Shown here: positions 2,671-21,973 of the stretch, one piece after another
Position numbering within the stretch: position 1 is the stretch's first letter
Layout of the letters: every line of letters begins with the position of its first letter
Origin: Rickettsiales bacterium
GTDB lineage: Bacteria; Pseudomonadota; Alphaproteobacteria; Rickettsiales; UBA3002
Reading direction: 5' to 3'
DNA length: 50,918 bases
Assembly (NCBI GenBank): GCA_044341105.1
Contig: JBIISI010000003.1
Location: forward strand, 1 to 50,918
Notes under the pieces: generated by a model
The model's input: the letters and a program-made list of their open reading frames with translations, nothing else
What the model was told of the DNA's origin: nothing
Database searches by the model: none
Translations under genes and position numbers: made by a program

Positions 2671-2680
2671 CAGATCCTGA

Positions 2681-2713: not shown

Positions 2714-2868
2714 CGGCGATAATAACCATAGGTGCCGTATCGTATATTCGTTTTTCCCCTCATCACACAACTATAAAAGCGCTTTTCCCGATGATGTCAA
2801 AACAATGGCAACACACTGAAAAGCTGTGCTTAAATTAATTGCTTTCATTTCATTGGGATGCCCTTTCC

Positions 2869-4476: not shown

Positions 4477-4477
4477 G

Positions 4478-4816
4478 ATGAAACGTCTTTGGTTTGCCTT
4501 TCTCTATTCCCTAAGTGGCCTTGCTGCGGCATGGCGCGATGAAGCGGCTTTCCGGCAGGAAGTGATCCTGGCTGCGGTGGTAATTCCGTGGGCCATCATT
4601 CTCGCCCCCAATAAATTATCACTGCTGCTCATGATCGGCAGTGTGCTTTTGGTGCTGGTACTAGAACTGCTGAATACGGCTGTGGAAGCATGCATCAACC
4701 GTATCGGCCCGGAAATACACCCTCTATCGAAGAAAGCCAAAGATACAGCCAGCGCAGCGGTGTTTATCGGGCTGGCCCATATGCTACTGGTCTGGAGCGT
4801 GATCCTGCTTTTTTAA
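4478..4816 (+). CDS. dgkA: Diacylglycerol kinase
   Basis: EAAFRQE, ELLNTAVEACIN, HPLSKKAKD motifs; 1 nt after eptA. Confidence 0.95.
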   Translation: MKRLWFAFLYSLSGLAAAWRDEAAFRQEVILAAVVIPWAIILAPNKLSLLLMIGSVLLVLVLELLNTAVEACINRIGPEIHPLSKKAKDTASAAVFIGLAHMLLVWSVILLF

Positions 4817-4982
4817 TGGAACGCCGGTCATCGGAGCACAAGACCGGGAAGATTCGGACTACACCTTGGTTAAGATTGCTGATTATCCAATCCAAGGTAT
4901 GGTTGCCCTATGCAAATTGCTAAAATCACCGCAGCAAGTTACAGCATTCAAACTGTTAGTTGGCTCAATGCGCCTATCACTT

Positions 4983-5651
4983 CTAGCCGATTTGCCTACT
5001 GTGCGATAACGCCGATTCTTTGATAATATCATGCAGTGCAGCAGCAGACGCATCTTGCGAAAGAACTTCTAATGCAGCATCGGTTAATACGACTTGGTGC
5101 GCTGGCTGCGTTTTCATTAACCGTAATATCTCTTTGTCTGCCTGCAATTCTGGATTCAGCTCTGTCAATAATCGCTCTGCCGCGCGTGCAAATTGTTCCG
5201 CATCTTTTCCATCTTTAAACGAATAAATGGCTCCTTCGGGAACCGTATGTCGCCCAAAACGCTTTTCATCGCCAATAGCCAAGACGGTATTTCCTTCGGA
5301 TATCTGGCAAGTTTCCCAATATGGAGTAAGTTCCATTCCTAGACACAGTTCATGATCGGCAAGCCATCTGTCTAACTCCAACTGCATCACTGGCCCGAAC
5401 CCAGATGGCGCGAACCCAGAACGGGCCAGACGCTTTATGTAGCTTTTATCCATCTGGACGAGATCGCTGATCGGAAGTTTTTTGGGGTCGTGCCCTGCCC
5501 AAACATTCTGGAGAAGATTGCGAAGACGAGTACTGAATTCTTCAAACGGTATAGGATCATCAAAGCGCGGGTCAAAAAAATTAGCCGTGTTACCCAAACG
5601 ATTAATTTTATTGGCCGCTATCTGACGATCAAAAGTCGATTGCTCTGACAT
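4983..5651 (-). CDS. Hypothetical protein
   Basis: 222 aa ORF with AAGGAG upstream; no recognisable motif. Confidence 0.6.
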   Translation of the reverse strand: MSEQSTFDRQIAANKINRLGNTANFFDPRFDDPIPFEEFSTRLRNLLQNVWAGHDPKKLPISDLVQMDKSYIKRLARSGFAPSGFGPVMQLELDRWLADHELCLGMELTPYWETCQISEGNTVLAIGDEKRFGRHTVPEGAIYSFKDGKDAEQFARAAERLLTELNPELQADKEILRLMKTQPAHQVVLTDAALEVLSQDASAAALHDIIKESALSHSRQIG

Positions 5652-5889
5652 TTGCTTCTTGCTTCTCCTTTATCTTCGTCCATCATATCATTTAATTATG
5701 TCAACATGATGAAGGCGTTCAGTAAAATTAATGACGTTAGCGCCCTTATAAGAATCGAACTGCCCAAGTACATATAAATCAATGAAAACGATTTAGCGGC
5801 CGTTTGAAATTGCTTAAAAAAACCAACCGACACGAACTCGCAACGCACTGATAATAAAGAAAAAAGAACGAAATCTCTGATTTCGTTGT

Positions 5890-5908
5890 AAATGGTGACT
5901 CTACGGGA
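5890..5908. repeat. att site (distal copy of tRNA-Glu 3' end)
   Basis: aaatggtgac-tctacggga equals 24686-24705 aaatggtgacctctacggga with a 1-nt deletion. Confidence 0.9.
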
Positions 5909-5968
5909 GGCACACCGGTCAATTAACGTATTGATTAGCACACCCAATTTGTCAACGGCGATCTTCGC

Positions 5969-5987
5969 ATGCCCCTAATTGTGCCCC
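5969..5987 (+). repeat. Integrase arm-type site (left)
   Basis: atgcccctaattgtgcccc, 18/19 identical to 24557-24575; inverted half-site taggggtat at 6026-6034. Confidence 0.7.
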
Positions 5988-6032
5988 TATTGCTGAATTG
6001 ACGTTTTTGGCTTGTTTCAGGCATATAGGGGT

Positions 6033-6638
6033 ATGAGCAAAACACCGCCGCCTAAAAAACGCAAAACCCGCCGAATGGTCGCACCATCGCTTTTTGTTCC
6101 GGTAACAAAAGAGGACAAGACATCAATGCCGTTTACCGGGGTGGAGCATGGCGAGCCAGAAGAAACCAAGCGAGAAAAGTTAGAACGGGAGCAACTAAAG
6201 CGAAAGCAGCTAGTCAGTCAATCAGCCCAAACCAATACCGAGGATATACTAAGATGGCTTCGGCAGGAAATGAATCGCCAAGAATACTCCTACGCGAAAC
6301 TTTCGGCTCTCACTGGAGTATCCGAACCAGCGATAAAATCTTGGTATAGCAAAAGCCCTACATCGCGACGGAGCCCCGGCCTTGTAGAAGTCATGAAATG
6401 TCTTCAGGCCTTAAATTTTATTCTCATCCCATCGGATGGTGTTCTGTATTTAGACGATACAGGGGACAGGTCTTGCAACCCCATCGATTGGTTTAGACAC
6501 CATCTTGCGAACCGTGAATTGCAGGATAGTGCCACAACACGAAAAACTAGCGTCTCTGAAGAGCATGCGCGCTCGAATGAAAACGCACGTCGCGCGCTTA
6601 AAATGAAAACGCATAAACCGCGCAGCCGGATATCTTAA
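6033..6638 (+). CDS. XRE/Cro-like HTH DNA-binding protein
   Basis: LRQEMNRQEYSYAKLSALTGVSEPAIKSW...SPGLVEVMKCLQALN resembles an HTH; ATG at 6033. Confidence 0.65.
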   Translation: MSKTPPPKKRKTRRMVAPSLFVPVTKEDKTSMPFTGVEHGEPEETKREKLEREQLKRKQLVSQSAQTNTEDILRWLRQEMNRQEYSYAKLSALTGVSEPAIKSWYSKSPTSRRSPGLVEVMKCLQALNFILIPSDGVLYLDDTGDRSCNPIDWFRHHLANRELQDSATTRKTSVSEEHARSNENARRALKMKTHKPRSRIS

Positions 6639-6721
6639 TTGGTTACTTCTGTAACCTTCCGCTCGTCGTAGTCTTTCTGCACCTTCGTACGACCATCACA
6701 GTCGTAATTAACGGAGGACTC

Positions 6722-6955
6722 ATGCAACCACTAGAAAACAAGCCAACCGGTTACAGCAAATATATTCGGGCCAAGCAGGCTGCTGAATATCTCGGCATCC
6801 CACTCTCGACGTTCTACCAGCTAGTCTCACAGGGAGTTTTACCAAAAGCCTTCAAACTCACGGATCGTATTTCGCTTTATCGGCGGGCTGATCTGGATGC
6901 CGTTTTGGCAAACCGTAATGGGGCGAATGAAGCCCTATCTGCAACGCAACGGTAG
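6722..6955 (+). CDS. AlpA-family excisionase/regulator
   Basis: YIRAKQAAEYLGIPLSTFYQLVSQGVLPKAFKLTDRISLYRRADLD; GGAGG RBS. Confidence 0.85.
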   Translation: MQPLENKPTGYSKYIRAKQAAEYLGIPLSTFYQLVSQGVLPKAFKLTDRISLYRRADLDAVLANRNGANEALSATQR

Positions 6956-6966
6956 GGGAGGCGCAC

Positions 6967-9525
6967 GTGGCAAAAATTGTTTCAGAACATGCCGACGTTG
7001 TGTTGAACATCGCACGCAACAGCAACAATATCGATTTGGTGCATACAAGGCCCTACAACCCAACCGTAAGCGAGTTGTTTGAGAGGCTTTCCAAGCCAAA
7101 GATCGACACCATTACGCTAGCGGAATACCTCGACCTCTCCCCGAAAGAGCGTAACAAGCATAAATCCAGCGCGGGATGGATTACAGGCGGTCGCGTGAGG
7201 AAAAACTACCGCTGCAAGAAGCACATGGGGAAAATCAGGCAGCTAATGCTCGATATCGACGGAGCGACACCCGAGTTGATCGAGGAGATTATCAGCGGCG
7301 ACACCGCATTCTCCAAGTTTGAGTGGTTTATGCACACCACGCGCTCGCATGATCCCGCCAAACCTCGCGTCCGGATTTACGTGCCGCTTCGTACCGCAGT
7401 TCCGCTAGATATCTTCGAGGCATTCGCGCGGATTACATGCACATTGCTTGCAACAGACGCACAAGCCGTCATGGATGCGGTGGACCCGGCCAGTTTTTCC
7501 GTAGCACAGCTCATGTACTTACCGACCATCAGCCGGGATCAAGAGTTCAAAAAATACCACAATAAGGGCGAGTTACTCGATTACCAAGACATCCTCGACC
7601 AATATGATGGGGACTACACCAATTTCGCTACGCTACCGCACTCATCCAAACGCGACAAAAAACATCGGACTCACATGCCCGATGGCAGCTATAAAGACCC
7701 ACGCGATAAGGAAGGTGTTGTTGGCGCATTCTGCCGGAAATGGAACATTGAGCAGGCCATGCGCGAATTCATTCCTGATGTTTATGAGCAAGACATCGGC
7801 GGTGACAGCAGCCGGTATCGTTACACAGGCTCCGACAGCATGGGCGGCGCTGTAGTGCTGGATGATGGGCAGTATCTCTATTCACATCATATCAATGCAG
7901 ACCCATGCGGCGGCGAATCCGTCAACGCCTTCGACATGGTACGTTTGCATGAATTTGGCGAACTGGATGATGATACTGATCCAGAAACCAAGATGACCAA
8001 GCTGCCATCCTACCAAGCGATGATCGAAATGCTCATGGAAATTCCTGAATTTCGTGACCAACTAGCGGAAGACCGTGTGGCGTTGGACGAATCTATCATT
8101 GACGCTTTCAAAGAACTCGACATCGAAGAAAAGGAAGATGAAGACAAAAAAATCCCGGCAGTCATGCGTTGGATGAATGAGCGGCATGCCGTGGTTGTAA
8201 ATGATGGCAACACAATCATTCTGAATTTTAAAAATGCAGAAGGCCATCTGACCTACAGCACCGCTCAAGACCTGCATATGCTCTACGCGAATAGAACTGC
8301 CACGCTGAAGACCGGAAAGCTTATGACCTACGACCGTTACTGGATGGAACACCCGAAGCGCCGTCAATATATCGGGGTGGATTTTAACCCCAATGGCGTA
8401 CCAGACGGATGGCTGAATACCTATCCCGGCTTTCCGCTTGCGCCGCGTGCAGGCGGAAACTTCAAGCGCATCCGTTGGCATCTTAAACATGTAATCTGCA
8501 ACGGTGATAAAGTGCTTTTCAAGGCGTTGATTCAGTGGTTGGCGCATATGATGCAAAAACCCGGAGAAAAACCCGGCTTTGCAGTGGTGCTCATCAGCGA
8601 AGGAAAAGGCACCGGGAAGGACACCGTAGGCCATATCGTGCACCAGATGCTGGGGCGCATGTGGACTCAAGTGCTCACCCCACGGCAGTTGCTTGGCAAC
8701 TTCAATGCGCACCTTAGCGATTGCCTGTTCATCCAAGTATCGGAGGCTATTTACCCTAAGGATAAGTCGGCGCAGGGGATGCTACAAAACCTGATTACCG
8801 AGCCGTTTCTGCCGATTGAGCGCAAGGGGAAGGATATCATGCGAGTCAGTAGTTTCCAACGCATCATGATTACCTCGAACCACCACCATGTCGTTCCAGC
8901 AAGTGCAGACGAACGGCGGTATTTCGTGCTGACCGTATCGGATCGGAAAAAACAGAACGCGGACTATTTTGACGCATTGTACGCAGAAATCGAAGATGTG
9001 AAGTCGATCCAAGCATTCATCGATTACCTCATGCATGTTGATATTTCCGACTTCGATCCGCGCAATCCGCCGAAGACCAACGCCCTTACCGAACAAAAGC
9101 TGGCGAACCTGACCGGGGTTGCCGAATGGTGGTACTACAGGCTTCAGGTGGGCCATATTCCCGGCTTCAGCAAATCCGGCAGTGGCGATGGGGGTTGCTG
9201 GGATGAGCCGGACATGTCGGAGTGGCAAGAGGGTTCTATTTCGGGCAAGAAACAAGCCCTGTACGATGATTATTGCGACCGTAATCGCCGCCGCCGCTAC
9301 GATGGCGACCCGGTAACGCCCGCAATCTTTTGGCGCGAAATGAAGAAGATGATGCCAGAGATCAAAACGGGGACCGCCCGGCAAGGGAAGACCTTTTACA
9401 AGAAGGCGACTATCGAGGGCCTTGATACCTGCCGGGCAGCATTCGCCAAGTTTATTGGCGGCAGCGTTGCGTGGGAGGGTGAACCCATGCCATGTCGCGA
9501 GATTGACCTAGAAGACCTGATTTAG
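6967..9525 (+). CDS. Primase/polymerase-helicase (AEP-like N-terminus, DUF5906/SF3-type ATPase C-terminus)
   Basis: MLDIDG, HTTRSH..PRVRIYVPL, YSHH..DPC..NAFDMVRLH; Walker A EGKGTGKD, GNFNAHL, IERKGKD, ITSNH, DERRYFV. Confidence 0.85.
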   Translation: MAKIVSEHADVVLNIARNSNNIDLVHTRPYNPTVSELFERLSKPKIDTITLAEYLDLSPKERNKHKSSAGWITGGRVRKNYRCKKHMGKIRQLMLDIDGATPELIEEIISGDTAFSKFEWFMHTTRSHDPAKPRVRIYVPLRTAVPLDIFEAFARITCTLLATDAQAVMDAVDPASFSVAQLMYLPTISRDQEFKKYHNKGELLDYQDILDQYDGDYTNFATLPHSSKRDKKHRTHMPDGSYKDPRDKEGVVGAFCRKWNIEQAMREFIPDVYEQDIGGDSSRYRYTGSDSMGGAVVLDDGQYLYSHHINADPCGGESVNAFDMVRLHEFGELDDDTDPETKMTKLPSYQAMIEMLMEIPEFRDQLAEDRVALDESIIDAFKELDIEEKEDEDKKIPAVMRWMNERHAVVVNDGNTIILNFKNAEGHLTYSTAQDLHMLYANRTATLKTGKLMTYDRYWMEHPKRRQYIGVDFNPNGVPDGWLNTYPGFPLAPRAGGNFKRIRWHLKHVICNGDKVLFKALIQWLAHMMQKPGEKPGFAVVLISEGKGTGKDTVGHIVHQMLGRMWTQVLTPRQLLGNFNAHLSDCLFIQVSEAIYPKDKSAQGMLQNLITEPFLPIERKGKDIMRVSSFQRIMITSNHHHVVPASADERRYFVLTVSDRKKQNADYFDALYAEIEDVKSIQAFIDYLMHVDISDFDPRNPPKTNALTEQKLANLTGVAEWWYYRLQVGHIPGFSKSGSGDGGCWDEPDMSEWQEGSISGKKQALYDDYCDRNRRRRYDGDPVTPAIFWREMKKMMPEIKTGTARQGKTFYKKATIEGLDTCRAAFAKFIGGSVAWEGEPMPCREIDLEDLI

Positions 9526-9552
9526 CCACTATCCTGTCGAGGTGGCTGAAGC

Positions 9553-9780
9553 GTGCCGTAGTCGTGAAGCCCCTAAACCCAGCAATTACGGCGCGTGACC
9601 GTGTAACGCAATGTAGCAGCAGGCATCGCAGCACCCCCTCATCCCTTTAACACTCGACTACAATATTTTTACCAACTCTCAAAACCCAGCACACCCAGCA
9701 CTACGGCACAACCAACCCCAACCGCAGCTTTACGCGCCCCCCCACTGTCGTTACAGCGACTACACAAGGTAGGCACTACC
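9553..9780. repeat. Putative replication origin: convergent short repeats
   Basis: gtgccgtagt (9553) / actacggcac (9700) perfect IR; gtagtcg (9558) vs cgactac (9655, 9757); tgtaacg (9602) vs cgttaca (9749); aaacccagca twice. Confidence 0.45.
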
Positions 9781-9790
9781 ACCCCGCTGT

Positions 9791-9837
9791 GGGTCCTTCC
9801 CCAGAAGTTGAGCCCCGTGGGACGCGCGGAGCCCCGG
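9791..9837 (+). other. Putative cos packaging site (cosQ/cosN-like)
   Basis: GGGTCCT (lambda cosQ sequence) at 9791-9797, then a GC-rich tract gtgggacgcgcggagccccgg whose core lies about 21-23 nt downstream. Confidence 0.4.
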
Positions 9838-9970
9838 TGAAAGGCAGTTGTCATAAATTGCCTATTACACATGAGGTTGCCAATTCCTGCTTTCGCAATG
9901 AGTGGATTGGCAGGTGGCGGGTTTTTGACTATGGTGCAGCCAATGTTGACTGACGGGGGAGCCAAGGTTG

Positions 9971-11296
9971 GTGAATCAGCAAAAAAATAAAGGCGGGAAC
10001 GGTCCATATGTTGCGACCCTGCTGCTATGCTTGCTGCTTTTCTCAGCGCGCGTAGTGGGCCAGTTGGTGCAGCATATTTCTCCCGTCGCGTTTCTCCCTC
10101 CGTTCGAGGCATGGCAAGGCAGCGGCATGCCGTATAGCGCGCTTCTCACCATGCAGCTGGTGATTGTTGCCGCCGCCTCATTCATCATCACCCGCCTTGC
10201 GCACGGTCGCATCACCCCCAACCCAAGAACCGCAGCATGGCTTTACTGGCTCGGCATCCCGTATTTTATTGCCATGCTGGTGCGCCTGCTCCTTGGCCTT
10301 GGGCCGCTGCATGAGGCCGCATGGTTCGCCGCCAGCATTCCGGCTTTTTTCCATATAGTGCTGGCCAGCATGGTGCTCACGCTGGCGCATTATCACTCAT
10401 CACCTGCGCAGCGGCTACGGTTCCGCCAAGCGATGCGCTGGGCGGTCTATCCGGGGATCATGGGGCTGGTGGTGCTCGCCTATTATGGCCTCATCGCACA
10501 AGGGGTCAGCCCGGTCATCAGCAGCTATGTCAGCGGGCTGTTAGCAGCCATCACCATTACCATCGCTGAAATCCTTCTGCCCTACCGCGCCGAGTGGCGA
10601 CCTACGCGGCATGACATCCTGCATGACAGCATTTTCCTGTTGCTCATACAAGTGGTGCTGCCCAATGCGCTGACCCTGCTAGCGGCCATCGGCCTGCAAC
10701 ATTGGGTAGTGCAAAGCGGCATCGCGGCGGATGCATGGTGGCCGCACCATTACCCGATATGGGCACAGATGCTGCTCATGATGTTTGCTGCCGATTTCCT
10801 GCGCTACTGGTTGCACCGCGCGTTTCATACCTACCACCGCCTATGGCCGATCCATGCCGTGCATCATTCGGTGCAGAAACTCTACTGGCTGAATGTGGGG
10901 CGCTTTCACCCGCTCGACAAATCGCTCCAGTTCCTTGCCGATGTGTTGCCTTTCATTTTCCTCGGCGTGTCGCAAGAGGTGCTTACGCTCTATTTCGTCG
11001 TTTACTCGGTGAAGGGCTTCTTCCAGCACAGCAATGTTGATGTGCGGCTGGGCTGGCTGAACTATCTTATCAGCGGCCCGGAATTGCACCGCTGGCACCA
11101 CTCCAAAATCATCCGCGAATCGAACAGCAACTACGGCAACAATATCAGCGTGTGGGACTGGCTGTTCGGCACCTTCCATTACCCCAAGGCACAAGAAGTG
11201 GGCGATCTCGGCCTGTTCAACCGCCACTACCCGATGGCTTTCCTGAGCCAGATGCGCGCGCCGTTCGTACGCGGGCTGGATAAGGAGGCGAAATGA
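9971..11296 (+). CDS. Sterol desaturase/fatty acid hydroxylase family protein with extra N-terminal membrane domain
   Basis: His boxes HRAFH, HAVHH, FQHSN, HRWHH; NYGNNISVWDWLFGT. Start codon uncertain (9968 TTG or 9971 GTG). Confidence 0.9.
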   Translation: MNQQKNKGGNGPYVATLLLCLLLFSARVVGQLVQHISPVAFLPPFEAWQGSGMPYSALLTMQLVIVAAASFIITRLAHGRITPNPRTAAWLYWLGIPYFIAMLVRLLLGLGPLHEAAWFAASIPAFFHIVLASMVLTLAHYHSSPAQRLRFRQAMRWAVYPGIMGLVVLAYYGLIAQGVSPVISSYVSGLLAAITITIAEILLPYRAEWRPTRHDILHDSIFLLLIQVVLPNALTLLAAIGLQHWVVQSGIAADAWWPHHYPIWAQMLLMMFAADFLRYWLHRAFHTYHRLWPIHAVHHSVQKLYWLNVGRFHPLDKSLQFLADVLPFIFLGVSQEVLTLYFVVYSVKGFFQHSNVDVRLGWLNYLISGPELHRWHHSKIIRESNSNYGNNISVWDWLFGTFHYPKAQEVGDLGLFNRHYPMAFLSQMRAPFVRGLDKEAK

Positions 11297-12801
11297 GCCG
11301 CCTTCAACAGCTGCTGGTACGGGTCCATATGGCCAAAATAGCGCTTGGTCCGTGGGCGCGTCTGAAGCAAAGCGCACGTAATTCGGAACGCACGCAGGCA
11401 GCATTGCTGCAACGTATCCTGCACGCCAACCGCACCACGCAGTTCGGTCAAACACATCAGTTCGCTTCGCTTGGCGATACCGCAGCCTACCGTGAAGCCG
11501 TCCCCATCCATGATTATGAAGCGTTGCGCCCTTTCATCGACCGCCAGATGCAACATGGCGAACACGCGCTAACGGTAGCGCCAGTATGCCATTATTTGCT
11601 GACCAGCGGCACGACCGGCGAGCCTAAGCGTATCCCACTAACCGAAGATGCGATGCGACATCTGCGCGATTGCCAGCGGCTAGCAGCCTACAGCCATTTC
11701 CGCGAAGCCCCGTTGCTATTCTCCGGCAAGCTACTCTCTATCACCGGCGCAGGCACGGAAGGGCAGATGCCCAACGACACCCCTTATGGCTGCCTATCCG
11801 GCGTACTGTTCGATGCCATGACCCGCTTCATGAAACGCCGCGCCATCCCCTCAGCTGCTATCGGACTGGAATATCGCTACGAAGACATCGCCCGCGAGGC
11901 TGCGGCAGCACCCGATATCACCGCTGCCATTACCGCCAACCCTTCCAGCTTCCTGCGCCTGAAAGAGATCATGCTGCGCGAAGGGCTGATACCGGCAGGG
12001 CGTTTACTCGGCGATCTGTGGCCCAACCTTCACGCCATCATCACATGGACACACGGTAACTGCGCCACCTACCTACCCGCATTGCAGCGTGAGTTCCCCA
12101 ACACTGCCATTCTGGAAGCAGGATATCTCGCCAGCGAAATCTATGGCACTATTCCCGTAGGTGGCGGGCGCTGCGTTCCCAGCCTTGAGCATACCTTTTT
12201 TGAGTTCATCGCGGTCGATGCATGGGAGAGTGGAAGCGGGGAAACCCAACTGCTGCACACGCTGGAGCAAGGCCACCGCTATTACGTCATCACCACGACC
12301 GAGAGCGGCCTTTACCGCTATTTCATGCATGACATCGTGGAAGTGGACGGCATGTTCGAGAACACGCCCTGCCTACGTTTTGTGCAGAAGGGAAAGGGCG
12401 TGACCAGCCTCACCGGTGAGAAGCTTTACGAGAGCCAATTGCTGCACGCACTCAAAACCATTCGGGGAGATGACGCGAACGCGCCCTTCTTCCTCGCCGT
12501 CGCTCATAACGATCCAGCCCATTACCGGCTCTATATCGAGAGCGCGCACACTGCTCCTGACATGGCCACACAGCTGGATGATGCGCTGGGCGCACTAAAT
12601 ATCGAATACAAGGCAAAGCGCGATAGCGGGCGGCTGCATCCGCTTTCCATCGCCTTCCTGAGCAATGGCGCAGGCGATGCTTACCGCCAGCACTGTATTG
12701 CACAGGGCCAACGCGATGCCCAATGGAAGCTGGTGCGGCTACAATACGCCCACGAATGCCCCTTCGATTTCACTCCCTTCCTGCGTAAGGATGCGTCATG
12801 A
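11293..12801 (+). CDS. GH3-family acyl acid-amido synthetase
   Basis: AVPIHDYEALRPFI, LTSGTTGEPKRIP, YLASE, TTESGLYRYFMHD, GEKLYE; ATGA overlap. Confidence 0.9.
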   Translation: MSRLQQLLVRVHMAKIALGPWARLKQSARNSERTQAALLQRILHANRTTQFGQTHQFASLGDTAAYREAVPIHDYEALRPFIDRQMQHGEHALTVAPVCHYLLTSGTTGEPKRIPLTEDAMRHLRDCQRLAAYSHFREAPLLFSGKLLSITGAGTEGQMPNDTPYGCLSGVLFDAMTRFMKRRAIPSAAIGLEYRYEDIAREAAAAPDITAAITANPSSFLRLKEIMLREGLIPAGRLLGDLWPNLHAIITWTHGNCATYLPALQREFPNTAILEAGYLASEIYGTIPVGGGRCVPSLEHTFFEFIAVDAWESGSGETQLLHTLEQGHRYYVITTTESGLYRYFMHDIVEVDGMFENTPCLRFVQKGKGVTSLTGEKLYESQLLHALKTIRGDDANAPFFLAVAHNDPAHYRLYIESAHTAPDMATQLDDALGALNIEYKAKRDSGRLHPLSIAFLSNGAGDAYRQHCIAQGQRDAQWKLVRLQYAHECPFDFTPFLRKDAS

Positions 12802-13892
12802 CCCTGCAACTCACCATGGCCCCGTTGCATATCCCCTTTCGCGCAGCATTCCGGCATGCAGGCGCGGAACGCGCGGAAACAGAAACGGTTATCGTTACCG
12901 CCCGCCGTGGTGGATTGGAAGGCGTAGGCGAAGGGTGCCCGCGCAGCTATGTCAGCGGCGAGTCCATCGCCAGTGCGTTGGCATTTTTTGAACAACATCA
13001 CGCTACGATCTCGCAATTATCGACACTGGATAACGTTCGCCACTTTACCCAACAGTTCCAGCAAGAGATTGATGCAAACCCGGCAGCATGGTGCGCGGTG
13101 GAACTTGCCTTGCTCGACCTGCTTGGCAAGGAGCAGCAGCTTCCTATCGAGGCGTTGCTTTCCCTACCGCCGATAACCCAGCCATGCCACTATTCCGCCG
13201 TGCTCAGCGCGGGCTCGGCAGATGGCTTCGCCAAGCAACTGGCGCAATATCAGGCGCAGGGCTTTACGCAATATAAAATCAAACTCTCCGGCGACGCCGC
13301 GCTCGATGCCGCTTATGTTGCGCATCTACGTGCAGCAAACATCCCCCTATCGCACGTGCGGGCCGATGCCAATCGTCTCTGGCCTGATGCCATATCCGCC
13401 ATCGCTCACCTCGCTGCATTGGATTACCCATTCTGGGCGCTTGAAGACCCGCTACATGCCATTAATACGGACGCACTTACCGCCATCGTCCACGCCCGCG
13501 ATTGCCGCATCATCATCGATGAGCATTTCCTACGCCTCGACCAGTTCGCTACGCTTGCTCCCCATGGCCCATGGATCATCAATCTCCGCATCTCGAAAAT
13601 GGGTGGTTTGCTGCGCAGCATGGCGATCATCCAGCACGCGGCTAATGCAGGTATTCCACTCATCATCGGCGCGCAAGTTGGCGAAACCAGTATCCTCACG
13701 CGTGCCGCCATTTGTGTTGCACAGGCAGCTGGAACTTCCCTGCTAGCCCAAGAAGGCGCGTTCGGAAACTTACTACTAGCAAACGATCCTTGCGACCCGT
13801 CACTCACGTTCGGCCCGCGCGGCATTCTCTCACCGCATCCCGCTTTTAGTACGCCGGGAATGGGCATAAATTGGCAACCGGAGGCCCTATGA
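12798..13892 (+). CDS. Enolase-superfamily enzyme (MLE/epimerase-like subgroup)
   Basis: GVGEGCPR, ELALLDL, KIK, DAN, LEDP, IIDE, RISKMGG, GAQVGET; ATGA overlap. Confidence 0.88.
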   Translation: MTLQLTMAPLHIPFRAAFRHAGAERAETETVIVTARRGGLEGVGEGCPRSYVSGESIASALAFFEQHHATISQLSTLDNVRHFTQQFQQEIDANPAAWCAVELALLDLLGKEQQLPIEALLSLPPITQPCHYSAVLSAGSADGFAKQLAQYQAQGFTQYKIKLSGDAALDAAYVAHLRAANIPLSHVRADANRLWPDAISAIAHLAALDYPFWALEDPLHAINTDALTAIVHARDCRIIIDEHFLRLDQFATLAPHGPWIINLRISKMGGLLRSMAIIQHAANAGIPLIIGAQVGETSILTRAAICVAQAAGTSLLAQEGAFGNLLLANDPCDPSLTFGPRGILSPHPAFSTPGMGINWQPEAL

Positions 13893-14545
13893 AAAAGTTC
13901 AGTTTTCTTCACCACTCTTTCATTGCTATGGCGCTGCTCTTACTTGCTGCATGTGGTGATGCGCCGCGCGGCCCGGCATTTTCCTATGATGGCAAAGAGT
14001 TGGAGCTTAAGCTGGAAGGCGGCAAATATCTTACCTTCACCGATGGCCCCTGCGACCAAGGATTTGACGGATGCGTCATTCACCAATTCAGAGGCACCTT
14101 TGCCAGAGACCAGTTTTATTTCGTTCATCACCAATACTACGAGGGCGGCAAGTACATGCTGTATTCTTATAAAAGTGGCAACAGAACGATTATCTACGGC
14201 GAGCCACATCTTTCTCCGCAAGAGAACCTCATTGCAACGGCAATGGGTGATGAAATGAATGACGATGGCACTGGCATACGACTTTTTGAAATCGCTAACG
14301 GCGAAGCAAAAGAACTCTTCCATTATAAGCCAAACGGCTACGCCCTTTACCGCTTTGACAAATGGATCAACAATAATGAGGCCGCCATTGAACTATACAC
14401 GATGTGCAGAGATAATGGGCGCAACGATTCGCTCACCATGCCGGTGCACCTAAGAAACACCCCAACCGGTTGGCAACTAGACCAAGGCATCGGCGAAGCG
14501 TGCATTCAATCCACGCGGCAACCTAAGCCTAGCGTAAGCCCGTAA
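13889..14545 (+). CDS. Lipoprotein, unknown function
   Basis: MKKFSFLHHSFIAMALLLLAAC lipobox; GGAGG RBS; ATGA overlap with enolase stop. Confidence 0.75.
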   Translation: MKKFSFLHHSFIAMALLLLAACGDAPRGPAFSYDGKELELKLEGGKYLTFTDGPCDQGFDGCVIHQFRGTFARDQFYFVHHQYYEGGKYMLYSYKSGNRTIIYGEPHLSPQENLIATAMGDEMNDDGTGIRLFEIANGEAKELFHYKPNGYALYRFDKWINNNEAAIELYTMCRDNGRNDSLTMPVHLRNTPTGWQLDQGIGEACIQSTRQPKPSVSP

Positions 14546-15635
14546 GTAGCCCGGCGGGTGGGACAGCATCGGTGAGGGCCAACTTGCCGCGTGTAACAGA
14601 CGTTGCAACCAATGTTGGGCGTTTTGCACCCCAGCTTGCAGATTCCCTTAGCAGCACGATGCCATCGTCGGTCCTACAATCCGTCTGCCAGTAATCCGAC
14701 ACACCGACAGCCATGTTATAATCACGGCATGATTCGCCTAAAACCTCCCGCGTTTCTTCAGGCTTAATCAGTCTTCCAGCTTCTCGCCCAGTTCGTTCCA
14801 CGCGCTTTATCTCGGCGCGCTTAAACTGGCCTTCAGGCGTTCTAATCACCTGAATGGAAATGCCCTCACCGTCGTACGTTTGGATACGATGCCTCTGGTT
14901 TTGGGATTCGGTCATTTTGTATGCGCCGAACCGCTTGATATGCAGCACATCGGTAATGGCCTGCTCATTGGGCGAAGATTGCAGCAGCACTTCGTCATTT
15001 GGCCCCTCCTTGCTGTCGGACCATTCATCCCACGCATTGAGTTCCAGCAAATCCGTTGGCACCACCAAGTCTTCGCGTTTCACGGTGCTTCTATCGATGG
15101 AAATCGTCTCCGAATGTTGGAGTTCAGTAGTCGCGTTACTGAACACTTTCTGCCACAGCAGTACACCATCCGCCGTGAGGCAACTCTCCTGCCTAATACC
15201 GGTTGTTCCGTATGGAACTTCCCATACGCGGCACGACTCCCCTAATCCCGTCCCTACCCTCTCTGTCGGGTGGAATGTATATTGCTCACTCTCCGTAGGG
15301 CCAATGATAGAAAGATGGTCATAGCGACCATCGGGCAGCACCGCATAGCTGTAAGAAAGGCCGGTTTTAAGGTCTGCAATGACGATGCCTTTTTTATCGT
15401 TACGCGTAGTCTCCTCACGTATCCGGTCACCCGCCCGCATGACCTTAATCGTCGATTTCTCCAGCTTATTCACGACCGTGATAGTATATTCTCCCTTTAT
15501 AGGCGCTGCATATCGCGTCCAACCCGGCATGATAAATGTTGCAGAAGAGGCAGCAGCCTGTGCAGCACTGCTTATTAAAATGACAGCAGCTACCGTTGCA
15601 ATTTTACGCATACTAATTGTAGATATTGCGATCAT
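14529..15635 (-). CDS. Exported beta-rich protein with internal domain duplication
   Basis: Signal peptide (AAQA); GESCRVWE...SCLTADGVLL repeated as GESCRDYN...DCRTDDGIVLL. Confidence 0.75.
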   Translation of the reverse strand: MIAISTISMRKIATVAAVILISSAAQAAASSATFIMPGWTRYAAPIKGEYTITVVNKLEKSTIKVMRAGDRIREETTRNDKKGIVIADLKTGLSYSYAVLPDGRYDHLSIIGPTESEQYTFHPTERVGTGLGESCRVWEVPYGTTGIRQESCLTADGVLLWQKVFSNATTELQHSETISIDRSTVKREDLVVPTDLLELNAWDEWSDSKEGPNDEVLLQSSPNEQAITDVLHIKRFGAYKMTESQNQRHRIQTYDGEGISIQVIRTPEGQFKRAEIKRVERTGREAGRLIKPEETREVLGESCRDYNMAVGVSDYWQTDCRTDDGIVLLRESASWGAKRPTLVATSVTRGKLALTDAVPPAGLLTGLR

Positions 15636-16081
15636 TGCTTGCCCTTCTTAGGCCTACATTCTTGGTATAGCTTGGCATAGGCTACTACCGCAGCATCAGC
15701 AGAGCAGCGAGCTTCTTCGTCACCACGATACAGCTTACAATCCCAATGTTCGGGTAATCCGTAGAAACGGTCGCGATCTTCAGTGCTACCAGTCTTTCTT
15801 ATTATGGAATGTGGACGGCCACGCACGTACTCAAGTACACGCCCGGAAAGAAACTGCTGACCATTTTTCTCGATGATTTGGTCAACGCTGAAATCCGTAT
15901 GTTTGGGGAATACGACTACCTCCCCCGACTCGGCATATGGTTTCGTTACATCCGGCTCACTAAACACGCGCGCGTCATCAACATCGGAGGAGCAGCTAAG
16001 ATGGTAATTACCCTCTACTGCCGCGCTTGCAGCTACAGAAAACCCCAAGACACAAGCTATAACGATCCCCCACAACTTCAT
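15632..16081 (-). CDS. Small exported Cys-containing protein
   Basis: MKLWGIVIACVLGFSVAASA signal peptide from ATG 16081. Confidence 0.7.
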   Translation of the reverse strand: MKLWGIVIACVLGFSVAASAAVEGNYHLSCSSDVDDARVFSEPDVTKPYAESGEVVVFPKHTDFSVDQIIEKNGQQFLSGRVLEYVRGRPHSIIRKTGSTEDRDRFYGLPEHWDCKLYRGDEEARCSADAAVVAYAKLYQECRPKKGKQ

Positions 16082-16604
16082 CACTTTTCTCCCTGCATGC
16101 CTGCAAATCGCGGTTGCAGGTAGTTCTTCCATGCTTGCGCCGCTTCGGAATCATTCATGCTCATGCAGTAGAGCCCTACACTGCGCACACGTATTTCGAG
16201 CGTGCCTTCATCAATCCGCTCAAAACGACCGCCATGACATTCGGCGGCAGGCTTGAGTAATGATCGATCTCTACTATCGCATCTTCCTCATCGTACTCGG
16301 TAATCTTCCCGGTCCAGTCATAAGCTAGCAGTTGATACTGCTTATACATCTGAGCGCATTTCGCGTCTTCTACACGCTGCGGATAGCCTGTGCAGTGCTG
16401 CCATTCTGGCGTGGATAGCTGCTGGTACAAATCCTTTACAGCTGCACGTGCGACTGATGCCACCTGCGCATTGGTTAGCGCCGGATCAATCGGCATCGTC
16501 GTGGCTTTAGAAGAAATCAACGGCGTAGGCAGACAGCAGGCGCTACACAAAAATAATAAAGAGAGGCTTGTGATACGCAGCATCACCTTAACGGCATCTC
16601 GCAT
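16081..16604 (-). pseudogene. Lipoprotein gene interrupted by a frameshift near 16260
   Basis: Lipobox LFLCSAC; another frame continues LLKPAAECHGGRFERIDEGTLEIRVRSVGLYC...GEK and stops in a TGATG overlap with the next gene. Confidence 0.55.
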
Positions 16605-16605
16605 C

Positions 16606-17010
16606 CTACGGCTCCTGCGCTTCGATAAATTTCTCGGATGTGTTCGATCCAAATCCATGGAGGTAAACGCTGGCCTTTGCCTGTACCCCGATACGGCCTT
16701 GTTGCTCTATAACCTCCAATGGACAAACATCGTGCGGCGATTGCGCAACATATACTTTATCGCCCAAAGCCAGCTTCACACGGCGCTTTCCCTTATCTTC
16801 CGCGATAGGGCATTGGTCAGAATTAGTCTTATTGTTGAGCCTGAAACAGCTGCCTTGCCAATTTTCGATAAAGTGGATTTCTATACCATCTGGAACGGCT
16901 TCAACCTTCTCTATCCAACATATGTTCCCCGCCCATACGGTTGCAGGAAAGAGGCCGAACGCAATAGTATATCCAATACGGTGCCAGATGCTAATCACTG
17001 ATGGCTCCAC
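16606..17010 (-). CDS. Small exported Cys-containing protein
   Basis: Signal-like TIAFGLFPATVWA followed by GNICW; 4 Cys; overlaps upstream stop. Confidence 0.6.
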   Translation of the reverse strand: MEPSVISIWHRIGYTIAFGLFPATVWAGNICWIEKVEAVPDGIEIHFIENWQGSCFRLNNKTNSDQCPIAEDKGKRRVKLALGDKVYVAQSPHDVCPLEVIEQQGRIGVQAKASVYLHGFGSNTSEKFIEAQEP

Positions 17011-17549
17011 AAATAAACGGTTATGGCATTTTCGGCGCTAATATCGCGCACGCAGCGAAATTGATCTTCTATCCCTTGCAACTGTACGAGGTCGGCGCTC
17101 CGATAGCCCCAACGGGTGGTAACATAAGCGCATTCCTGCGCCCCTTTCTTTTGCAGCGAGCCCAACGTCGTTTGCAGTGCATCACGAATTCTTTTGTCAT
17201 CGGTACGCTGTGCGGTTTGTTTCGTTAGCTTTTTTGCCTGTTCTTTATACAGCTCGTCCCACCAGATGGATTCACGCTCCATACAATTTCTACTGTGCGA
17301 ACCAACGGCAATATCGGCCAGCGCATTATCGTATGCGGACACGTCGCTAATACACGCCTTTGTGAATTTGCCGATGCAAGTTTGGTAGAGGGTGTATTTA
17401 TCATCCGCCGATGCAAGGCAATAATCCAAGAACTGCTTTCTTACCGGGTCAGCGGCATGGGCGATCCCTGCCATCCCGATAATCGCCCAACACATCATCA
17501 GCAAAGCTAGGTTCTTTGTGAGCATCGGAATCTTTTTTGTCGCTACCAT
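16995..17549 (-). CDS. Exported protein resembling LprI (DUF1311) lysozyme inhibitors
   Basis: Signal peptide AHA; CIG..T..C ... C..RE..WWD pattern, helical, multiple Cys. Confidence 0.55.
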   Translation of the reverse strand: MVATKKIPMLTKNLALLMMCWAIIGMAGIAHAADPVRKQFLDYCLASADDKYTLYQTCIGKFTKACISDVSAYDNALADIAVGSHSRNCMERESIWWDELYKEQAKKLTKQTAQRTDDKRIRDALQTTLGSLQKKGAQECAYVTTRWGYRSADLVQLQGIEDQFRCVRDISAENAITVYLWSHQ

Positions 17550-17558
17550 ACACTCACA

Positions 17559-18322
17559 CTAAGACAGAGGTTTCTTTGGAGTTCGCGCATATTTATCTGC
17601 CGTCTCTGGCCGTAATTGCAACCCCACCATTTTTTCATTCTCGAAAACATACGGACATACGGGCGCTTTGTAGAACTGCTCAAAGATTTCTTCTGCCACG
17701 TCAATTTGCTCGTCCGTCATACGCTTTTCGAGTTCTTCCTGTTCGGCACGTGTACCGAACATCTTGATCGGCACCATCGACGCATGGACATGCGCCAAAA
17801 TTACATTCGGTTCGACCAACGCCCGCTCCTCAGCGGTGATATCGGGAGATGGTAACCCACCATACAGTGCTGCCAGATAATGAGAGGAAAGTATTGGGCA
17901 CGATCACACGCCATACGGTGCATCCAATAAAGCGATTTAGCGTAATCCTGCTTAAACCCATCGCGCCATTTCATTTTTGGCGGCGGCCCATTCGGTAAGG
18001 TGTGTTGAGGCGGTATCTTTTGCGCATACTGCTGCGCCAACTCAATTTGGGCAAAGGGCTCACCCGCCTCTGCGGCTTTGAATAAGTAAATATTTGATTC
18101 TTCCTCGGTCATGCCGCCTTTGTCGCGGATGATACCGAAATGGTCCCCTAAAAGTCTCATCGCGGATATATCCCCGCTATCCGCTGCTGCTTTAATAGTC
18201 TCAAAACTATCTTTATAGCTCACCGTCGATGGCGGAAATGGCTTAAAGCGCGGATTTGGTTTGGGCGAGCATGCTGCCATTGCTAGGCAGCAGACAAGTA
18301 GCATTGCATTAACAACCCGCAT
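17559..18322 (-). pseudogene. Sel1-repeat lipoprotein split by a frameshift near 17885
   Basis: Lipobox AMAAC; Sel1 motifs AADSGDISAMRLLG, KAAEAGEPFAQIELA, QDYAKSLYW; second frame continues SHYLAALYGG...EKRMTDEQIDVAEE. Confidence 0.65.
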
Positions 18323-18439
18323 AAGAACCCTCCGCGCGCATCATACATTTTTTCTTACGCGGCGCAGCTACAGATTGCGGTTATCGAATAATATACATGC
18401 CGGTCGCGAGAAAATACGCTAATGCATTAGTGTTAACAC

Positions 18440-20188
18440 ATGGGAGTCAGCATGGTGCAGAGCACCGAGATTGTAGCTAATGCCACAGCAGGAACGCTGC
18501 ACCAACTCATCCTCGATGAGTATGAGCGCGGCATCGATGAGGGTGATGCAGCGTTTGTTGCCCTTACGGTTGAGCTGCATAACGCTGGAGCTATTGACCT
18601 TCTAGCGGCGCTGAGCCCCACTGCATTGGCAGACGCGCAGGGGTTCCAGTTTTTTACCCTTCAACAATTCTATTGCGCGGCTATTCCGAAAATCGAGGCT
18701 GAGCCGAAGCCTTTAATGACTGTGGTTTCAACCCTAGTGAAAGCGGCTGGAAATGACATGGCTTCTTACATGCCCAACGCTGCGTACCGGGATTGGTGCT
18801 CACTAAAACCAGAGCGTCCTGACCTCGTTATGAATTTAATCACCGCTGGAGACGCAGAAGCGATGGAATACCTGTCCCTGACATTAGAGGGTGGCGCTGT
18901 TTTCGATAAACGTAGATTCATGGAACAGGCCATCACTTACTTGCGAGATGCGCCAGAGTTACGCCAAGCCGCATTAACCGCGCTCGCCCGAATCGATAGT
19001 AGCGGCAATGTTGATCTTGCTCATACAGCATTAGCACTGATGGCGGAACACGTCACTGAGCAAGCTGACGATATGCTGCGCACCCATGTCTTAGCGGCGA
19101 CTCTTGGCCTATATTCGCGATCACCCGCAGAGATGCATGATGAAGCCTTGGCCCTAATTACACAGACCATCCAGCATCGCGGCGACGGTGTTCTACACCA
19201 CTGCGCGTCTGCATTGTTTGAGCGTAAAAATTTAACTGATGCGATGGTGGAATTACTCATAACAACACTAGAAGACGTGAATCCTGCTCACCTCGGCACG
19301 ATTAATTCGCTCGATGTTGCGCTGTCAGAACTTATAAAAGCGGGCAAGGGTGCGCGTGTTATTGGTTACTTAGAGAAAGTTTTTCGTGCCCACCCTGATG
19401 CGCTCAGCTTCAAGCAATTCGATAGTGTGGGTCACACGTTAACGCGGGAACAACAACCGCTCGCCACCGATACAACCGTGCGGTGGCTGATGAGTGGCGA
19501 TGCAAACCTTGCCTCCCATATCTCTGACCTTATGAGTGCGTCAACGCAGCAACCTACGATATTCACTGTTGATATCGCGCCCTACGCTTTCAGTGATGTT
19601 GAGGCCATTTTCCTTGCCCGTAAAGCCATTGGCTGGTTCTTCTTCCACCCTATCACCGCAGCATCACTCATTGTCTGCGTATTGCGCACTGTAAACGGCG
19701 ATACAGCTGAAACCATTGGCGATCTTCTTTTTGATCCGCTGCTGCTTAGTTATTCGGGAGAACTACGGAACTACCTGCAAGAGCGAACTAACGATCCAAG
19801 TGAAACTGCTGCGCCTCAAATCCAGCAAGCCATTGATAAGTTGGATGCATATCTAAACAATCTGCGTGCTGCCGGATTTATTGCCGAACTCGAACCTTCC
19901 GAACGTGAACGATTGATCGAACGGCAGAAGAATACTGAGCGCATGCGTCAAATTCAAAAACAGGCAGAGCAAAGCTCGGTGTTACTGTCACTCGTATCCA
20001 AGTCCATCATTCTCCATGGCAATGGCTCTATTGGGTATCGCTACGATATGGATGGAAAGCCCCACCGCCATAGCATGAAAATGGGTACTTATAGCTCCGT
20101 GTGGGAAGCGCCACGCTTAGAGGCTATCGACCCGTTCGGGCTTGATATGCAATTACGCGTTTTCCGCGCTGAGAGGCTCGTCGCATGA
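18440..20188 (+). CDS. Large alpha-helical (HEAT/ARM-like) hypothetical protein
   Basis: 582 aa Leu/Ala-rich amphipathic helices; ATGA overlap with the next gene. Confidence 0.8.
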   Translation: MGVSMVQSTEIVANATAGTLHQLILDEYERGIDEGDAAFVALTVELHNAGAIDLLAALSPTALADAQGFQFFTLQQFYCAAIPKIEAEPKPLMTVVSTLVKAAGNDMASYMPNAAYRDWCSLKPERPDLVMNLITAGDAEAMEYLSLTLEGGAVFDKRRFMEQAITYLRDAPELRQAALTALARIDSSGNVDLAHTALALMAEHVTEQADDMLRTHVLAATLGLYSRSPAEMHDEALALITQTIQHRGDGVLHHCASALFERKNLTDAMVELLITTLEDVNPAHLGTINSLDVALSELIKAGKGARVIGYLEKVFRAHPDALSFKQFDSVGHTLTREQQPLATDTTVRWLMSGDANLASHISDLMSASTQQPTIFTVDIAPYAFSDVEAIFLARKAIGWFFFHPITAASLIVCVLRTVNGDTAETIGDLLFDPLLLSYSGELRNYLQERTNDPSETAAPQIQQAIDKLDAYLNNLRAAGFIAELEPSERERLIERQKNTERMRQIQKQAEQSSVLLSLVSKSIILHGNGSIGYRYDMDGKPHRHSMKMGTYSSVWEAPRLEAIDPFGLDMQLRVFRAERLVA

Positions 20189-21939: not shown

Positions 21940-21973
21940 AGGCTGTTCTACAACTCGGAAACATCCCTTTTTC

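Follow-up and report, generated by a model that had tools for sequence, protein, structure and literature searches.

What do bacteria make with a cassette in which a membrane hydroxylase, an acyl-acid amido synthetase and an enolase-superfamily enzyme are encoded by coupled genes? The question is raised by a stretch of DNA from a Rickettsiales bacterium (lineage UBA3002; assembly GCA_044341105.1, contig JBIISI010000003.1), referred to here as the window, which is a complete contig of 50,918 bp from a host genome of 2.02 Mb that is 91% complete. Gene 1 of the trio (9971–11296, forward strand, 441 amino acids) encodes a four-helix membrane domain joined to a di-iron hydroxylase, gene 2 (11293–12801, forward strand, 502 amino acids) a GH3 acyl-acid amido synthetase and gene 3 (12798–13892, forward strand, 364 amino acids) an enzyme of the MLE subgroup of the enolase superfamily. 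An earlier note, made from this DNA alone, had described the three genes as coupled by ATGA overlaps and had proposed that they make or modify an oxidised N-acyl amino acid. Inspection of the junction sequences confirmed the start/stop overlaps at 11293–11296 and 12798–12801, with a further one at 13889–13892 leading into a lipoprotein gene, and the domain identities all lie above their Pfam cut-offs. The trio is found as a conserved unit in many bacteria, and there is about an even chance that it forms a membrane-bound line that couples a fatty acid with a (probably basic) amino acid, hydroxylates the resulting conjugate and works on the alpha-carbon beside its free carboxylate.

The conservation of the trio was followed in two sets of loci. 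A search with the GH3 protein yielded six loci at about 40% identity, and a search with a GH3 alignment, the patterns of which are specific to this clade, yielded 181 relatives, the best 80 of which make up the larger set; four of these 80 loci lie on contigs already present in the smaller set, and one locus of the smaller set (L003) is counted among the 80. The order hydroxylase–GH3–enolase is kept in all six loci of the first set. In the larger set, the enolase gene lies 3' of the GH3 gene in 80 of 80 loci and the hydroxylase gene 5' of it in 79, the sole locus lacking the hydroxylase (L034) being on a contig that begins at the GH3 gene. The cassette genes share one strand in all 80 loci, with median gaps between the matches of 54 and 41 nucleotides, and the gene order is conserved far beyond chance. 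The gene-neighbourhood check proposed at the outset has accordingly come out in favour of a conserved trio, and has added a fourth component, namely a protein homologous to the four-helix domain of gene 1. This protein was found in 58 of the 80 loci, beside the hydroxylase in 46 and parted from it by inserted genes in 12, and tblastn also located it as a separate open reading frame (ORF) in L001 and L004–L006.

The four parts are, moreover, frequently joined into one chain. FA_hydroxylase and GH3 domains occur in a single protein in 22 of the 120 best GH3 homologues, and 33 of the 150 best GH3 representatives are at least 780 amino acids long, with all six of those checked by Pfam carrying both the hydroxylase and GH3. 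One chain of 1207 amino acids (P0174) contains hydroxylase, GH3 and enolase together, and in two others (P0196 and P0200) the hydroxylase is preceded by a long N-terminal extension. Among the 80 loci, single ORFs fuse the four-helix part to the hydroxylase in L057, L079 and L084, as they do in the window and in the related genome G002, and the hydroxylase to GH3 in L052, L085 and L086. Each adjacent pair of the four parts is fused somewhere, which argues for one physical and functional unit.

Other genes accompany the cassette in some lineages only. A PotA-type ATP-binding cassette (ABC) importer is inserted between the four-helix gene and the hydroxylase gene in 9 of the 80 loci; its ATPase passes the potA cut-off and its binding protein is faintly PotD-like. 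A hydrolase of the CocE/NonD type (Peptidase_S15) directly follows the enolase gene in 7 of the 80 (L017, L031, L050, L055, L061, L081 and L087), with remnants in L033 and L084, and could deacylate or transacylate the cassette product; tblastn did not find it in the host genome. No other clean neighbour family was detected in more than 10 of the 80 loci by a crude clustering of ORFs in which overlapping ORFs were merged, the exception being a cluster of 15 loci whose ORFs overlie the cassette and importer genes on the opposite strand. Two separate contigs of one gammaproteobacterial metagenome-assembled genome (MAG) each hold a cassette, and the ABC importer is inserted in only one of the two (L047 and L075). 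Furthermore, identical-looking copies stand at the two ends of one MAG record labelled as a circular chromosome (L018 and L019), possibly through assembly overlap and not through duplication.

With regard to their taxonomic range, the loci come from about ten phyla, with representatives in Nitrospirota, Nitrospinota, Chloroflexota, Acidobacteriota, Actinomycetota, Poribacteria, Binatia, Latescibacterota and the alpha-, beta- and gammaproteobacteria. By record title, the carriers include Nitrospira and other Nitrospirales (20 loci), Nitrospinaceae, Nitrosomonas, Nitrosospira, Nitrotoga, Gallionellaceae and Burkholderiales, together with many gammaproteobacterial MAGs (Candidatus Foliamicus among them), Dehalococcoidia, Acidobacteriota, Acidimicrobiales, Binatia, Poribacteria and Latescibacterota. 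At least one carrier is in culture, Herminiimonas glaciei CCUG 59859, and two more, Nitrospira sp. BLG_1 and Candidatus Nitrotoga sp. BS, are represented by records other than MAGs.

Among the relatives of the host the cassette is rare. In a set of 41 genomes, made up of the genome of the window (G000) and 40 others of its genus, family and order, GH3, the enolase and a close copy of the hydroxylase co-occur in the same two, G000 and G002, which share 76%, 72% and 69% identity, respectively, for these three proteins; the remaining genomes contain distant hydroxylase paralogues only. The RecJ relatives of the host, at 60–67% identity, belong to uncultured alphaproteobacterial MAGs. The trio of G002 is isolated, flanked by a GGDEF gene and by a Fic gene on the opposite strand, with none of the island genes of the window beside it. 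A FastTree phylogeny of 46 GH3 sequences, midpoint-rooted, places the window protein and its short-form relatives on a separate long branch, and the phyla are intermixed in it. The solitary trio in G002 and the intermixed tree thus indicate that the trio is itself a transferred unit, for which the island is one vehicle. Most homologous loci are found in ordinary chromosomal contexts.

The hydroxylase domain of gene 1 (residues ~151–441, 10421–11296, forward strand) is a membrane di-iron enzyme of the His-box type and is OlsE-like according to its Pfam and NCBIfam matches. It matches the Pfam family FA_hydroxylase (PF04116) at 104.5 bits against a cut-off of 31 over residues 267–401, and its sole NCBIfam match is OlsE (NF052566), at 178.4 bits and an E-value of 2e-52 over the 282 residues 153–434, which lies well under the equivalog cut-off of 475 bits. 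In an alignment of 25 homologues H282, H286, H295, H298, H299, H313, H353, H373, H376 and H377 are invariant, as are the boxes HxxxH, HxxHH, QH and HxxHH that they form. The AlphaFold2 (AF2) model of gene 1 has a mean predicted local distance difference test score (pLDDT) of 85.8, and its residues 205–441 give a weak match in VIA-align to the hydroxylase domain of Scs7p, the only family member of solved structure that came up (4zr1_B, Z 5.3, 180 residues aligned at a root-mean-square deviation of 5.2; 4zr0_B, Z 5.1). Foldseek with the full model returned no match at E<=0.001, and the search of PDB sequences with the gene 1 protein returned none.

The N-terminal four-helix membrane domain (residues ~1–150, 9971–10420, forward strand), which is a separate small gene in most other genomes, is modelled with helices at residues 11–36, 55–77, 85–109 and 118–141, and R27, Q31, Y55, Q62, Y98, R105, W118 and H128 are invariant in its alignment (A4). 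It has no family in Pfam, NCBIfam or PHROG, the Atlas search with the four-helix protein returned solely clusters annotated as hypothetical protein, and VIA-align found generic helical bundles only (Z<=6.6). A stand-alone homologue with 40% identity to residues 10–145 occurs in the genome G025 (L171, contig C63, 4120–6684), in which no GH3 gene was found; it lies directly 3' of genes for a DUF6962 membrane protein and a FAD_binding_4/ALO-type oxidase, a context that gave no clear function. This arrangement hints that the four-helix family partners membrane oxidoreductases more generally.

The GH3 protein matches the N, M and C domains of the Pfam GH3 family at 129.5, 69.4 and 55.8 bits against a cut-off of 23.6, and belongs to that family. 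Its sole NCBIfam match is OlsH (NF052613), a lyso-ornithine-lipid synthetase, at 96.1 bits against an equivalog cut-off of 620; the homologue from Herminiimonas scores 95.9 bits. The nearest solved GH3 structures are of plant enzymes (7dk8, 6avh and 4epl, E-values from 2e-21 to 3e-20). The three nucleotide motifs appear as TSGTTGEPK at residues 104–112, GYLASE at 277–282 and GLYRYFMHD at 339–347, with most of their positions invariant in the alignment A1, and correspond to the SSGTSQGRPK-like, YGSSE-like and GLYRYRLGD-like motifs as defined in the relevant part of PMC12493201. Compared with the main bacterial clade, the window protein is a short form in which about 45 residues are missing. A search of 1.84 billion representatives gave 5557 matches at E<=1e-3, 3352 at E<=1e-10 and 829 at E<=1e-30, the last figure referring to clusters at 50% identity. 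One of the more distant homologues (P0236, 720 amino acids) is fused to a C-terminal cyclic-nucleotide-binding domain.

The enolase-superfamily enzyme has MR_MLE_C and MR_MLE_N domains in Pfam, at 85 bits against 29.4 and 37.5 bits against 22, respectively. All 12 of its equivalog matches in NCBIfam lie under their cut-offs, the best being DgcA (87.5 bits against 400), and the families that fail in this way include the L-Ala-D/L-Glu epimerase, OSBS, cis-3-hydroxy-L-proline dehydratase and muconate cycloisomerase. By sequence and profile its matches in the PDB are 3jva (profile E-value 5e-46), 2p88 (2e-44), 1jpm and 3rit. Its AF2 model, with a pLDDT of 92.6, retrieves 1jpm, 3q45, 3jva, 2p88, 3rit and 2zc8 as the top Foldseek matches, with TM-scores of 0.81–0.87 and 19–25% identity. 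These solved neighbours comprise the dipeptide epimerases 3jva, 1jpm, 3q45 and 3rit, the N-succinyl-Arg/Lys racemase 2p88 and the N-acylamino-acid racemase 2zc8. The protein is assigned to the MLE subgroup by its N-terminal capping domain, its TIM-barrel domain, a KxK motif at the end of beta2 (K160 and K162) and three metal ligands on beta3–5 (D190, E216 and D241), and the strand positions of the model agree with the catalytic assignments of enolases, with beta6 at residues 259–263.

The active site is nevertheless unusual when set against those of racemases. All 32 family members compared have K160, K162, D190, E216, D241, R264 and K267, and R264 aligns with the catalytic lysine of beta6, which is the first lysine of N-I-K-L-M-K-x-G-G in 3jva, 3rit, 1jpm and 2p88. 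Arginine stands there in 32 of 32 sequences and only the lysine at the '+3' position (K267), described in the part of PMC12006748 used here as a second-shell specificity determinant, is kept, so that the pair of lysines typical of racemases and epimerases is incomplete. The DxD motif, too, is missing, with A317-Q-E319 in its place when aligned with 3rit, or G320 and F322 when aligned with 1jpm; A317 is nearly invariant and E319 invariant in the 32 sequences. In dipeptide epimerases the DxD motif after beta8 binds the N-terminal ammonium of the dipeptide. Judged by its catalytic residues, the enzyme is not a canonical two-lysine racemase, because the catalytic lysine of beta6 is an invariant arginine. 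The second racemase lysine being absent, epimerisation and dehydration are therefore both possible, and the chemistry might be a one-base beta-elimination or might employ a non-canonical second base. The MLE-type assignment made earlier thus holds, and the racemisation that was attached to it is not secured.

A scheme that would accommodate these components begins with GH3, which at the cytoplasmic face of the inner membrane would adenylate a free fatty (lipid) acid with ATP and then use it to acylate the alpha-amino group of an amino acid. This amino acid is most likely basic, for example ornithine or lysine, and its N-acyl derivative would keep the alpha-carboxylate free. The neighbouring and often fused di-iron hydroxylase would then oxidise this lipid, with the head group as the target by analogy with OlsE and with the four-helix protein as the membrane partner of the hydroxylase. 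In a third step the enolase would bind the free carboxylate through Mg2+ and a lysine of the KxK motif would take the alpha-proton, which may result in an inverted alpha-carbon, and so a D-amino-acid lipid, or in the loss of the hydroxyl installed by the hydroxylase, and so a dehydro-amino-acid lipid. Among enzymes of solved structure, those nearest to the enolase have as substrates N-acylated amino acids whose carboxylate is free, and the cationic-substrate enzymes 3rit and 2p88 are among them. The catalytic equipment of the line is intact with regard to the GH3 motifs, the His boxes of the hydroxylase and the KxK motif and metal ligands of the enolase. A basic amino acid is suggested as the substrate by three hints, namely the likeness to OlsE and OlsH, the presence in some lineages of an importer of the polyamine class and the closeness of the enolase to 3rit and 2p88. 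We infer the substrates, the order of the steps, the alpha-carbon chemistry and the role alike; for the role, envelope remodelling would be the reading, and the pssA-like, psd, eptA-like and PmrA-like genes on the same island hint at it. The oxidised N-acyl amino acid proposed at the outset fits the OlsH and OlsE family matches, the conservation and the fusions, and stands as a predicted product.

Several observations weigh against such an amino-lipid line. The 80 loci are the best of 181 relatives, which were retrieved with patterns specific to the clade. The OlsH and OlsE scores lie far under their equivalog cut-offs, and the substrate identity of those enzymes is therefore not transferable, and the replacement of the beta6 lysine by Arg264 together with the missing DxD motif makes simple two-base racemisation doubtful. 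No O-acyltransferase of the OlsI type is present in the cassette in the window or in G002, which leaves a two-chain membrane lipid unexplained. The importer, TauD and hydrolase neighbours of some lineages have a catabolic flavour. Finally, the host chromosome carries a pair of genes (L090, G000 contig C85, 1408–2983) for an OlsB-like protein (285 bits, cut-off 320) and an OlsA-like protein (169 bits, cut-off 300), beside a gene for a Fur-family regulator. An amino lipid of the OlsBA type is thus probably made by the host in any case, and an ornithine lipid from the cassette would be partly redundant.

Three other explanations were considered. In one of them the fatty acid would be tailored first, with the hydroxylase giving a 2- or 3-hydroxy acid and the enolase epimerising or dehydrating at the acid's own carboxylate, before GH3 conjugates the result to an amine or an amino acid, possibly a polyamine. 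A free acid likewise offers the carboxylate and alpha-proton that enolase-superfamily enzymes require, a one-base chemistry with KxK kept and Arg264 in place of the beta6 lysine suits a dehydratase, the Pfam family of gene 1 is itself named 'fatty acid hydroxylase', and the PotA-type importer would suit an amine without a carboxylate. The nearest kin of the enolase by sequence and by fold are, however, N-acyl-amino-acid and dipeptide enzymes and not acid-sugar or hydroxy-acid dehydratases, and OlsE, the best family match of the hydroxylase, modifies a head group, all of which leaves this order of events rather unlikely. The kinship with DgcA, an N-acetyl-D-Glu racemase and the best NCBIfam match of the enolase (87.5 bits), opens a different route, in which an imported amino acid would be converted between its D and L forms, or salvaged, by acylation, isomerisation and deacylation, with GH3 providing a transient N-acyl group and a hydrolase removing it. 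The DgcN-DgcA route is a pathway from D-Glu to L-Glu (PMC10845958, in the part drawn on), NSAR operons are part of a pathway that converts D-amino acids (as cited within a section of PMC12006748), and the ABC importer in 9 and the CocE/NonD hydrolase in 7 of the 80 loci would supply uptake and deacylation. This scheme gives no role to the membrane di-iron hydroxylase, which is present in 79 of the 80 loci and often fused to GH3; furthermore, neither the importer nor the hydrolase accompanies the cassette in the window or in G002, and most loci lack them, too. The enolase is also without the second lysine of racemases, and the DgcA score is far under the cut-off of 400. We consider such a conversion quite improbable.

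The third explanation concerns the destination of the product, which might be a diffusible signal or an anti-phage or antimicrobial metabolite instead of an envelope lipid. The trio lies on an island near the Olokun defence pair OloA/OloB, the cassette contains no O-acyltransferase, and N-acyl amino acids, as single-chain amphiphiles, can be signals or surfactants, according to a passage of PMC12493201. Nevertheless, neither the three trio proteins nor the lipoprotein match any family of PADLOC-DB 2.0, defence genes are no regular neighbours of the cassette in G002 or in the 80 loci, and the conserved set has no exporter, so that this possibility appears very slight. The defence metabolite that the earlier note had listed among the candidate products finds no support in these results, given the lack of PADLOC matches and the mostly ordinary chromosomal setting of the homologous loci.

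The amino-lipid line extends to a wider and more tentative proposal, which we put forward as possible though more doubtful than the line itself. The four-part module of four-helix protein, hydroxylase, GH3 and enolase might constitute a further bacterial route to amino lipids, with the four-helix protein as a dedicated subunit, and might yield a new class of lipid, namely hydroxylated N-acyl basic amino acids with the alpha-carbon inverted or dehydrated by an arginine-containing active site; it would be widespread in nitrifiers (Nitrospira, Nitrosomonas, Nitrotoga and Nitrospinaceae), in uncultured Poribacteria and in Candidatus Foliamicus, and would spread horizontally from phylum to phylum, self-sufficient as a module for remodelling the envelope. 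For bacteria, the demonstration of GH3-dependent lipid synthesis dates only from 2025 and is limited to one planctomycete enzyme, as set out in the portion of PMC12493201 consulted. The cassette defines one large and sharply delimited GH3 clade with fixed partners, from which a testable prediction of a new type of lipoamino acid follows. The clade is present in organisms central to nitrification as well as in several poorly known uncultured lineages, the enolase superfamily would gain an unusual active-site variant with arginine for the beta6 lysine, and the cultured and non-MAG carriers make the cassette accessible at the bench. The copy in the window indicates that the module travels on integrative islands with other genes for envelope lipids.

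The island that carries the trio can be delimited on its right-hand side. A tyrosine integrase of the P4 type (23322–24530, reverse strand), recognised by NCBIfam, Pfam and PHROG, adjoins a tRNA-Glu gene with the anticodon ttc (24689–24763, reverse strand, ARAGORN); the integrase matches NF007246 at 252.6 bits, under the cut-off of 434 bits, as well as the Pfam families Arm-DNA-bind_3, Phage_int_M and Phage_integrase and the integrase family PHROG 1. The GC content steps from about 51% to about 64% at the same place (50.7% in 1–9970, 51.3% in 13893–24600 and 63.8% in 24800–50918), and the trio itself has 58.0%, compared with 60.6% for the whole genome. The tRNA-Glu gene is the likely integration site and right-hand border of the island. 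The integrase beside a tRNA and the shift in GC content would fit a tRNA-integrated island; no flanking repeat was seen, no direct att repeat longer than chance being present in 1–25000, and the contig ends inside the island. The idea that the trio is cargo on a mobile element is supported by the low GC content, the integrase beside the tRNA-Glu gene and the gene for a primase-helicase (6967–9525) to the left of the trio. Between this gene and the trio lie 445 bp of non-coding, C-rich DNA (9526–9970). A scan of 9400–10100 for Rfam-type RNAs gave as its sole match a miRNA at chance level (E 0.48), and a scan of 9400–15000 for promoters and terminators gave counts no higher than the shuffled expectation, with one promoter-like site upstream of the trio (9907–9935) that is likewise at chance level. 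The sequencing-run index lists DNA runs only, which their records describe as metagenomes of lake water and wastewater, and not one RNA run.

The left-hand part of the window is occupied by genes related to the envelope. An open frame truncated by the contig end (1–483), with a weak and sub-threshold hint of a sensor-kinase N-terminus, is followed by a PmrA-like response regulator (480–1136), a pssA-like CDP-alcohol phosphatidyltransferase (1229–1975), a phosphatidylserine decarboxylase (psd, 1960–2670) and an EptA-type phosphoethanolamine–lipid A transferase (2839–4476). The last protein passes NF028537 (612 bits against 500) and lies under every cut-off of the MCR family. By these assignments, 1–4476 is a putative envelope-lipid module on the island of the trio, comprising a mobile eptA-like gene and its own genes for the supply of phosphatidylethanolamine.

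To the right of the trio, the gene at 13889–14545 (forward strand) encodes a lipoprotein of unknown function with a signal peptide and an L-A-A-C lipobox. Its start is likely the ATG at 13889, and not the TTG at 13871, because of the ATGA overlap at 13889–13892. The coupling of this gene behind the trio had been pointed out before and holds as far as the overlap is concerned; the lipoprotein is not, however, a member of the unit, as it is missing from all 80 loci, from all six loci of the smaller set and from G002, and is thus translationally coupled yet outside the conserved cassette. It has a GC content of 49% compared with 58% for the trio, no family in Pfam, NCBIfam, PHROG or PADLOC and only three relatives in a collection of 5.8 billion proteins. 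Further to the right, five ORFs of 368, 166, 160, 184 and 173 amino acids on the reverse strand (14529–18322) match neither a Pfam nor a PADLOC family at the thresholds applied; four have no PHROG and the one of 173 amino acids has a marginal match of unknown function, and the ORF of 368 amino acids, the only one of the five scanned against NCBIfam, has no match there. They are followed by the Olokun pair (18440–21939), with PADLOC scores of 355 bits for OloA and 691 bits for OloB, and by two small ORFs (21920–22672 and 22685–23062) with PHROGs of unknown function only.

How does the cassette compare with systems already described? Plant GH3 enzymes are soluble and conjugate hormones. The cassette GH3 shares with plant members such as JAR1, GH3.8 and GH3.12 the same three Pfam domains and motifs, and differs from them in being coupled to the membrane and often covalently joined to a hydroxylase. 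With regard to the enolase, the fold, the KxK motif and the three metal ligands are those of the dipeptide epimerases, NSAR and NAAAR of the MLE subgroup (3jva, 1jpm/1tkk, 3rit, 3q45, 2p88 and 2zc8), from which it is set apart by Arg264 and by A317-x-E319 in place of DxD. As in the DgcN-DgcA and NSAR operons, an N-acylating enzyme is paired with an MLE-type enzyme for an N-acyl amino acid; in contrast to these operons, the acylating enzyme is an ATP-dependent GH3 and not an acyl-CoA transferase, the hydroxylase is obligatory and the lysine pair of racemases is incomplete. The hydroxylase finds its counterpart in OlsE, which hydroxylates the head group of ornithine lipid (at C4) in Rhizobium tropici and Agrobacterium, as outlined in the corresponding section of PMC12971839; the hydroxylase of gene 1 differs in being fused to or preceded by a four-helix protein and in its frequent fusion to GH3.

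The closest precedent is the OlsH/OlsI(/OlsG) pathway for ornithine lipids in Singulisphaera acidiphila (PMC12493201), in which OlsH was shown experimentally in 2025 to make N-acyl ornithine from free fatty acid and ATP, as reported in the part of that paper used here; its authors, in the same part, left open the functions of many other bacterial GH3 homologues. Both systems have a bacterial GH3 enzyme with the three nucleotide motifs in an operon with lipid-tailoring genes, and by analogy the cassette would be expected to convert ATP, a free fatty acid and an amino acid into an N-acyl amino acid. The cassette has, however, neither the alpha/beta-hydrolase O-acyltransferase OlsI nor the methyltransferase OlsG, and the hydrolase seen in 7 of the 80 loci is of a different type, CocE/NonD. 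Its fixed partners are instead a di-iron hydroxylase and an enolase-superfamily enzyme, together with a four-helix membrane protein. The main text of PMC12493201 does not mention a hydroxylase, enolase or racemase, nor the words fused or Nitrospir-, and in the 2026 review PMC12971839 racemases and epimerases go unmentioned and the orders listed for OlsH homologues omit the main carriers found in this analysis. Both publications treat the GH3-dependent synthesis of ornithine lipids and point to many bacterial homologues yet to be characterised. No published description of a hydroxylase–GH3–enolase cassette was found in full-text searches of the literature, supplements not covered. The earlier statement that no characterised pathway contains this trio therefore stands for the cassette itself and has to be qualified by the related GH3 lipid pathway of OlsH. 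In comparison with that pathway, what appears to be new is a GH3-based lipid route, of predicted product and function, in which the fixed partners are different and the active site of the enolase is unusual.

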